This document shows positions 12,237 to 12,356 of a DNA stretch of 38,166 bases, one piece after another (within the stretch, counting starts at the first letter, position 1; each line of letters opens with the position of its first letter). Origin of the DNA: Escherichia phage T7. The notes under the pieces are model-generated. The model saw only the letters and a list, made by a program, of their open reading frames with translations, had not been told where the DNA came from and did no database searches. The stretch is taken from the sequence record MZ375249.1; one strand, given 5' to 3'. Both the position numbers and the translations under genes were made by a program.

Positions 12237-12297
12237 CAGGATTCTTGATGACTTTCCAGACGACTACGAGAAGTTTCGCTGGAGAGTCCCATTCTAA
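11959..12297 (+). CDS. 4.2: Gene 4.2 candidate (112 aa, alternate frame overlapping the end of gene 4)
   Basis: ORF at the position annotated as 4.2 in T7; hydrophobic low-complexity translation, coding status doubtful. Confidence 0.35.
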
Positions 12298-12317
12298 TAC
12301 GACTCACTAAAGGAGAC
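12295..12317 (+). promoter_or_regulatory. T7 promoter phi4.3
   Basis: taatacgactcactaaaggagac. Confidence 0.9.
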
Positions 12318-12356
12318 ACACCAAATTCTTTGAGTAATCAAACAGGAGAAACCATT

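Follow-up and report, generated by a model that had tools for sequence, protein, structure and literature searches.

A very probably engineered, template-directed deletion of gene 4.3 in a passaged clone of phage T7

The absence of gene 4.3 from the T7 genome analyzed here is, very probably, an engineered, template-directed deletion of a non-essential gene, made in the CiPGr experiment of Yuan et al. (2022). The deletion has already been published and deposited, together with further planned CRISPR/homologous-recombination deletions. We compared the window, i.e., the whole 38,166-nt stretch of DNA under study (MZ375249.1), with the full T7 reference genome (NC_001604), with the first 25 kb of the clone T7_130S, and with the clone T7_250L. 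The window is 99.9+% T7, and its alignment with NC_001604 revealed six internal deletions, namely 0.4-0.6 (563 bp), 1.4, 3.8 (292 bp), 4.3, 5.3, and 19.5 (189 bp). Further differences comprise the loss of 18 bp from each terminal repeat, a single inserted T, and about 15 substitutions, and the sizes balance (39,937 - 1,772 + 1 = 38,166).

Extent of the gene 4.3 deletion and its junction

Around gene 4.3, alignment of the window with the reference returned a single 198-bp gap, at the site where an earlier note, made from the sequence alone, had expected one. The reference annotation places gene 4.3 at 13352-13564, in agreement with the 70-codon gene that the note expected between promoter phi4.3 and gene 4.5, and the measured gap equals the predicted jump of 213 minus 15, or 198 bp. 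When set at the gene 4.3 ATG, the gap spans reference positions 13352-13549, removing codons 1-66; the claim that the gene was lost from its start codon, while its last 15 nt and the gene 4.5 ribosome-binding site were kept, is thus borne out by the alignment. Exact extension of both flanks showed that the 198-bp gap can be placed anywhere from reference positions 13350-13547 to 13353-13550, a 3-nt ambiguity that arises because the trinucleotide CCA is common to both flanks. No base substitutions relative to the reference were found within positions 12237-12400 of the window.

The elements that surround the junction, downstream of the gene 4 stop codon (12234-12236) or overlapping the end of gene 4, are as follows (window coordinates).

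11959..12297, + strand: gene 4.2 ORF, overlapping the end of gene 4 and running into phi4.3; unchanged, with no differences from the reference (annotated there at 12988-13326)
12295..12317, + strand: promoter phi4.3, TAATACGACTCACTAAAGGAGAC, for T7 RNA polymerase, covering -17 to +6 with the +1 G at 12312 (reference +1 at 13341); fully kept
12321..12323, + strand: deletion junction, with CCA in both flanks by flank extension and junction-repeat computation; the join lies at 12322/12323 if the gap is reference 13352-13549
12323..12337, + strand: gene 4.3 remnant, AAATTCTTTGAGTAA, read as AAA TTC TTT GAG TAA (KFFE*), with the start codon absent; the gp4.3 translation ends ...SKFFE*
12338..12356, + strand: spacer between 4.3 and 4.5, TCAAACAGGAGAAACCATT, the native 19 nt, identical to reference 13565-13583, with the gene 4.5 Shine-Dalgarno sequence AGGAG at 12344-12348
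12357..12626, + strand: gene 4.5, an intact 270-nt ORF and the first after phi4.3, behind a 45-nt leader; an annotated CDS in sibling records

Reading of the sequence showed that phi4.3 and the gene 4.5 ATG had both been given their correct coordinates, and a T7 promoter-consensus scan of the window returned 14 promoters, with 12295-12317 among them. Downstream of phi4.3 the order is ACACC, AAATTCTTTGAGTAA, and TCAAACAGGAGAAACCATT, followed by the ATG at 12357. The interval 12237-12356, under which the earlier note had entered the deletion, is not empty in its first part, since 12237-12297 is the 3' end of the gene 4.2 ORF. No leftover 4.3 coding sequence was detected in the window: gp4.3 gave no tblastn match at E<=10 anywhere along it, and no word of the deleted segment longer than 12 nt, a chance-level length, recurred in it. 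The 45-nt leader contains no ATG or GTG and a single TTG that is also present in the wild type, and 66 of the 70 codons are gone; hence, no gp4.3 can be made.

One junction in a series of T7 clones

The records closest to the window are deposited as 'Mutant Escherichia phage T7 clone', T7_90S (MZ375250, 38,163 bp) and T7_130S (MZ375258, 38,167 bp). Comparison with T7_130S over the first 25 kb returned 10 substitutions and not a single indel. The same accession run holds T7_40S, T7_100S (37,779 bp), T7_120S (37,111 bp), T7_250L, and T7_300L. These names follow the scheme of CiPGr (Yuan, Shi, Jiang, and Ma, Nucleic Acids Res 2022; PMC9825161), in which T7 was grown through serial transfers on E. 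coli MG1655 cells equipped with SpCas9 and a pooled library of plasmids. Over 300 transfers, plaques of two sizes, large (L) and small (S), were sampled at every tenth transfer, and 60 T7 mutants were sequenced, bearing names such as 'T7_300L' (PMC9825161). Each CiPGr cassette is 200 bp and combines a spacer with a homologous-recombination template of 2 x 50 bp; the 'cassette-gene' templates were meant to delete entire genes, and no cassettes were directed against likely regulatory elements (PMC9825161). A literature search found no paper citing the MZ3752xx accessions; the clone names and the experimental scheme support the assignment of the clone series to the CiPGr experiment. The deposited T7_300L record (MZ375291) is 37,262 bp, as against 36,937 bp in the paper.

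A 44-nt query centered on the junction, whose halves are too short to seed a match to wild-type T7, hit 28 of the 50,697 phage records, each with 100% identity. These were 27 MZ3752xx clones and OL964740 (T7_5t2), and the junction was absent from the remaining 50,669 records, i.e., from everything outside the engineered series. The other T7 records among the matches listed still have gene 4.3, as each aligns in two pieces. Within the series, 4.3 is deleted in T7_40S, where 3.8 and 5.3 are present, and it is present in MZ375241, where 3.8 is deleted; one junction therefore occurs in different genetic combinations.

This distribution bears on two other explanations of the gap. The first is natural polymorphism, whereby the window would derive from a wild T7-like phage, or another reference lineage, that never had the gene. 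Local gene content could in principle vary among T7 relatives, and 4.3 is small and non-essential. However, apart from the deletions, only some 15 substitutions in 38 kb separate the window from T7, a 15-nt remnant of 4.3 persists, and the junction is confined to the engineered clones, while the other T7 records and the close relatives among the matches listed keep the gene. A natural origin is thus barely conceivable. The second is a collapsed or mis-joined contig. Scattered substitutions between clone records, mainly near the genome ends, do suggest some sequencing noise, yet 28 clones, each assembled independently, show the same clean junction, gene 4.3 is retained in other clones processed by the same pipeline, and no repeat in the flanks is of a length that could cause an assembly to collapse. 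Moreover, designed deletions were detected by PCR in the published work, with gp4.7 and gp5.3 as examples (PMC9825161). We consider such an artefact extremely improbable.

Undesigned large-fragment losses were also reported, covering gp0.3-0.6, gp4.3-4.7, and gp19.5 (PMC9825161). In T7_120S (MZ375256, 12200-12400), the whole 4.3-4.7 block is absent, with about 70 nt between the primase/helicase stop and the start of the DNA polymerase gene. This block loss is the undesigned gp4.3-4.7 loss of the paper and is distinct from the precise deletion of 4.3.

Placement of deletion endpoints

The earlier note had left two origins side by side, deliberate design and a microhomology-mediated event, and both can be weighed against the other deletions of the series. 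The deletions that resemble that of 4.3 lie as follows in the window.

7026..7027, + strand: gene 1.4 deletion, exactly ATG to stop, reference 7608-7763; junction repeat absent
10516..10517, + strand: gene 3.8 deletion, reference 11254-11545, 292 bp, inside the gene; junction repeat absent; 19 nt kept before the gene 4A ATG
15255..15256, + strand: gene 5.3 deletion from the ATG, reference 16483-16820, 338 bp; 19 nt of 5.3 and 30 nt before the gene 5.5 ATG kept

Deletions of 1.7 and 7.7 were read in the later clone T7_250L. Taking the window and T7_250L together, the first nucleotide lost is the first of the start codon at 1.4, 4.3, 5.3, and 7.7. At 1.7 and 3.8 the loss sets in 27-29 nt inside the gene; the start of the 1.7 deletion abuts the end of the upstream gene, and no such overlap accounts for that of 3.8. 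All six stop 19-34 nt short of the next start codon, with 34 nt kept in the case of 4.3. From this pattern we infer that the designers intended to preserve ribosome-binding sites, the kept distance varying between 19 and 34 nt.

Junction repeats at 1.4, 1.7, 3.8, 4.3, 5.3, and 7.7 measure 0, 4, 0, 3, 0, and 0 nt, respectively, so that the 3-nt CCA is unremarkable among the six. The inspection for microhomology that had been proposed for the 4.3 junction did uncover this CCA, which is within chance: a repeat of at least 3 nt is expected for random deletions in T7 with P = 0.054.

Two further deletions in the window have another character. That of 19.5 removes 189 bp, comprising most of the gene and downstream sequence (window 37856-37864), and is also found in T7_250L. 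In the reference it is flanked by a perfect 9-nt direct repeat, ATAGAGTCA, and in a simulation of 200,000 random deletions, repeats of at least 9 nt arose at a frequency of about 1e-4; the loss of 19.5 is a spontaneous direct-repeat deletion. The 563-bp deletion at 0.4-0.6 (reference 1341-1903; window 1322-1323) runs from within 0.4 to within 0.6B, off gene boundaries. In T7_250L the corresponding loss has other endpoints, at reference 1310-1985, and because that clone carries a different deletion, this region suffered repeated, untemplated losses. The 0.4-0.6 junction has 1 exact common nt, set among roughly a dozen nt that match imperfectly. A clean direct-repeat event was considered for 0.4-0.6 and rejected, as the 12-nt overlap reported by BLAST was reduced to that 1 exact nt when read base by base.

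Spontaneous slippage or recombination between short direct repeats could likewise have removed 4.3, followed by selection of the product, either as a CRISPR escape through loss of the Cas9 target or for its smaller genome. In its favor, a 3-nt repeat flanks the deleted segment, the same genome carries undesigned losses at 19.5 (with its 9-nt repeat) and 0.4-0.6, and the published list of undesigned losses includes gp4.3-4.7 (PMC9825161). However, a repeat of at least 3 nt accompanies 5.4% of random T7 deletions and so carries little weight, and the gap can start exactly on the ATG, like those of 1.4, 5.3, and 7.7; exact starts of this kind, seen in three deletions of the window, are not typical of spontaneous events. 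The endpoints at 4.3 are identical in 28 of 28 records, whereas those of the undesigned 0.4-0.6 losses vary by clone, and the undesigned loss at this very locus, in T7_120S, is larger, with 4.5 and 4.7 gone too. Neither a repeat longer than chance nor off-boundary, variable endpoints, as would mark a spontaneous direct-repeat deletion, were found at 4.3, and we regard this origin as very unlikely.

Deliberate design is, in contrast, supported by the clone series, the 28 identical junctions, and the same placement rule in the sister deletions. Four features of a designed CiPGr deletion are present at 4.3, namely occurrence in the series, an invariant junction, removal of the gene from its start codon with sparing of neighboring signals, and internal protospacers. 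As to the last, 17 candidate SpCas9 protospacers (20 nt plus NGG) lie wholly within the deleted 198 bp, and hence the edit removes Cas9 targets.

Proposed route to the deletion and the new gene 4.5 leader

In the mechanism that we propose for the engineered deletion, T7 would infect E. coli MG1655 carrying SpCas9 and the pooled plasmids, and a guide would direct cutting inside gene 4.3. A 100-bp repair template, presumably made up of the 50 bp ending at reference 13351 and the 50 bp starting at reference 13550, would then direct recombination, dropping reference 13352-13549 together with every protospacer in that stretch. Phage edited in this way would escape further cutting and gain frequency across serial transfers. 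What remains is an intact phi4.3, the final 15 nt of gene 4.3, and the unaltered 19-nt spacer that holds the 4.5 ribosome-binding site, owing to which genes 4.5 and 4.7 stay transcribed and translatable.

The new leader was also folded in silico. Its predicted free energy is -14.8 kcal/mol (z = -0.96), compared with z = -0.17 and -0.52 for the wild-type contexts, and none of the three is distinguishable from shuffled sequences. In the weak fold of the new leader, UUCUUU is paired with GGAGAA, and the start codon with the 5' end. A scan of window positions 12000-12800 for sigma-70 promoters and intrinsic terminators returned nothing relevant. Beyond the loss of gp4.3, the 45-nt leader could conceivably shift the output of gp4.5 and gp4.7, through pairing of the UUCUUU remnant with the 4.5 Shine-Dalgarno sequence and of the 5' GGAGACA with the 4.5 start, and so aid the spread of the allele, although we consider this unlikely.

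Further changes in the window

Several neighboring changes were recorded alongside the deletions. The 292 bp lost from 3.8 are not a multiple of 3, and the first 10 codons of 3.8 are joined in frame to gene 4A through a 6-codon linker (window 10488-12236). The resulting ORF encodes a primase/helicase of 582 aa that is longer by 16 residues at its N-terminus, and it is this longer ORF that carries the primase/helicase annotation in the sibling GenBank records; the native 4A start and its Shine-Dalgarno sequence remain. The 1.4 deletion takes with it the TAA stop, which also forms positions -17 to -15 of promoter phi1.5 (window 7024-7046). This promoter now starts with TTT rather than TAA (changes at -16 and -15) and is lost from the 3-mismatch promoter scan. 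At phiOL, the +1 position (window 387, reference 405) is G instead of A, giving the consensus TATAGGGAGA, as it also does in T7_250L.

The terminal repeat is 142 nt long, not 160 (window 1-142 and 38025-38166), and both copies carry the same 18-bp deletion, whose junction repeat is GGGTT (5 nt), as well as an identical G-to-T substitution at position 37. The change in the terminal repeat apparently arose after transfer 40, because T7_40S keeps the wild-type gene 0.3 coordinates. Nine coding substitutions separate the window from the reference; every one is non-synonymous and shared with T7_250L.

Substitution positions (window): 3140, 14336, 18006, 18042, 23120, 31454, 32502, 32607, 33698
Amino-acid changes: gene 1 Q184R; gene 5 K404T; gene 7.3 T13P and R25S; gene 11 A153E; gene 16 G809S, K1158R, and A1193V; gene 17 K214E

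These nine changes look like adaptation to serial passage, or like differences already present in the laboratory stock.

Discussion

The window represents an engineered, passaged T7 rather than a natural genome, and its missing genes, odd junctions, and amino-acid changes are therefore best taken as products of design and experimental evolution. The finding at 4.3 is real but ordinary, and its value is mainly one of bookkeeping. It confirms again that gp4.3, annotated in NC_001604 as a non-essential hypothetical protein, can be dispensed with by T7 grown on E. coli K-12 in the laboratory. In a PhageMaP preprint, weak counteraction of a RADAR defence system was proposed for gp4.3 and gp4.5, with plating efficiency on a RADAR2-expressing host predicted to fall by about 70% when gp4.3 is lacking; if this proposal is true, the 4.3-deletion clone would be a ready test strain for gp4.3 against RADAR.

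The genome also offers a yardstick of its own for telling the two kinds of deletion apart. On the templated side stand endpoints at gene boundaries, junction repeats of 0-4 nt, and invariance among clones; on the spontaneous side, off-boundary positions with a 9-nt direct repeat or variable endpoints. This contrast is useful for judging other deletions in the window.

Comparison with known systems

Among known systems, the CiPGr clones are the closest match, being the same phage with the same deletion set (0.4-0.6, 1.4, 3.8, 4.3, 5.3, and 19.5) and a 4.3 junction that is the same base for base. Sequence alignment showed that T7_250L has the 18-bp terminal-repeat deletion in common with the window, and a shift of 18-19 nt in the gene 0.3 coordinates suggests that T7_90S and T7_130S carry it too. 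None of the compared records, however, is identical to the window.

Spontaneous short-direct-repeat deletions in T7 likewise leave one copy of the repeat, as CCA is left at the 4.3 junction. Unlike those deletions, the repeat at 4.3 is 3 nt long and at chance level, and the endpoints fall on a gene boundary and do not vary among clones.

Gene 4.3 was also removed as dispensable to shrink T7 in SMART T7-B (mBio 2025, PMC12153263) and DCHR (Synth Syst Biotechnol 2025, PMC12664982). Both delete the whole 4.3-4.7 block of about 1.02 kb, whereas the window loses 4.3 alone and keeps 4.5 and 4.7.
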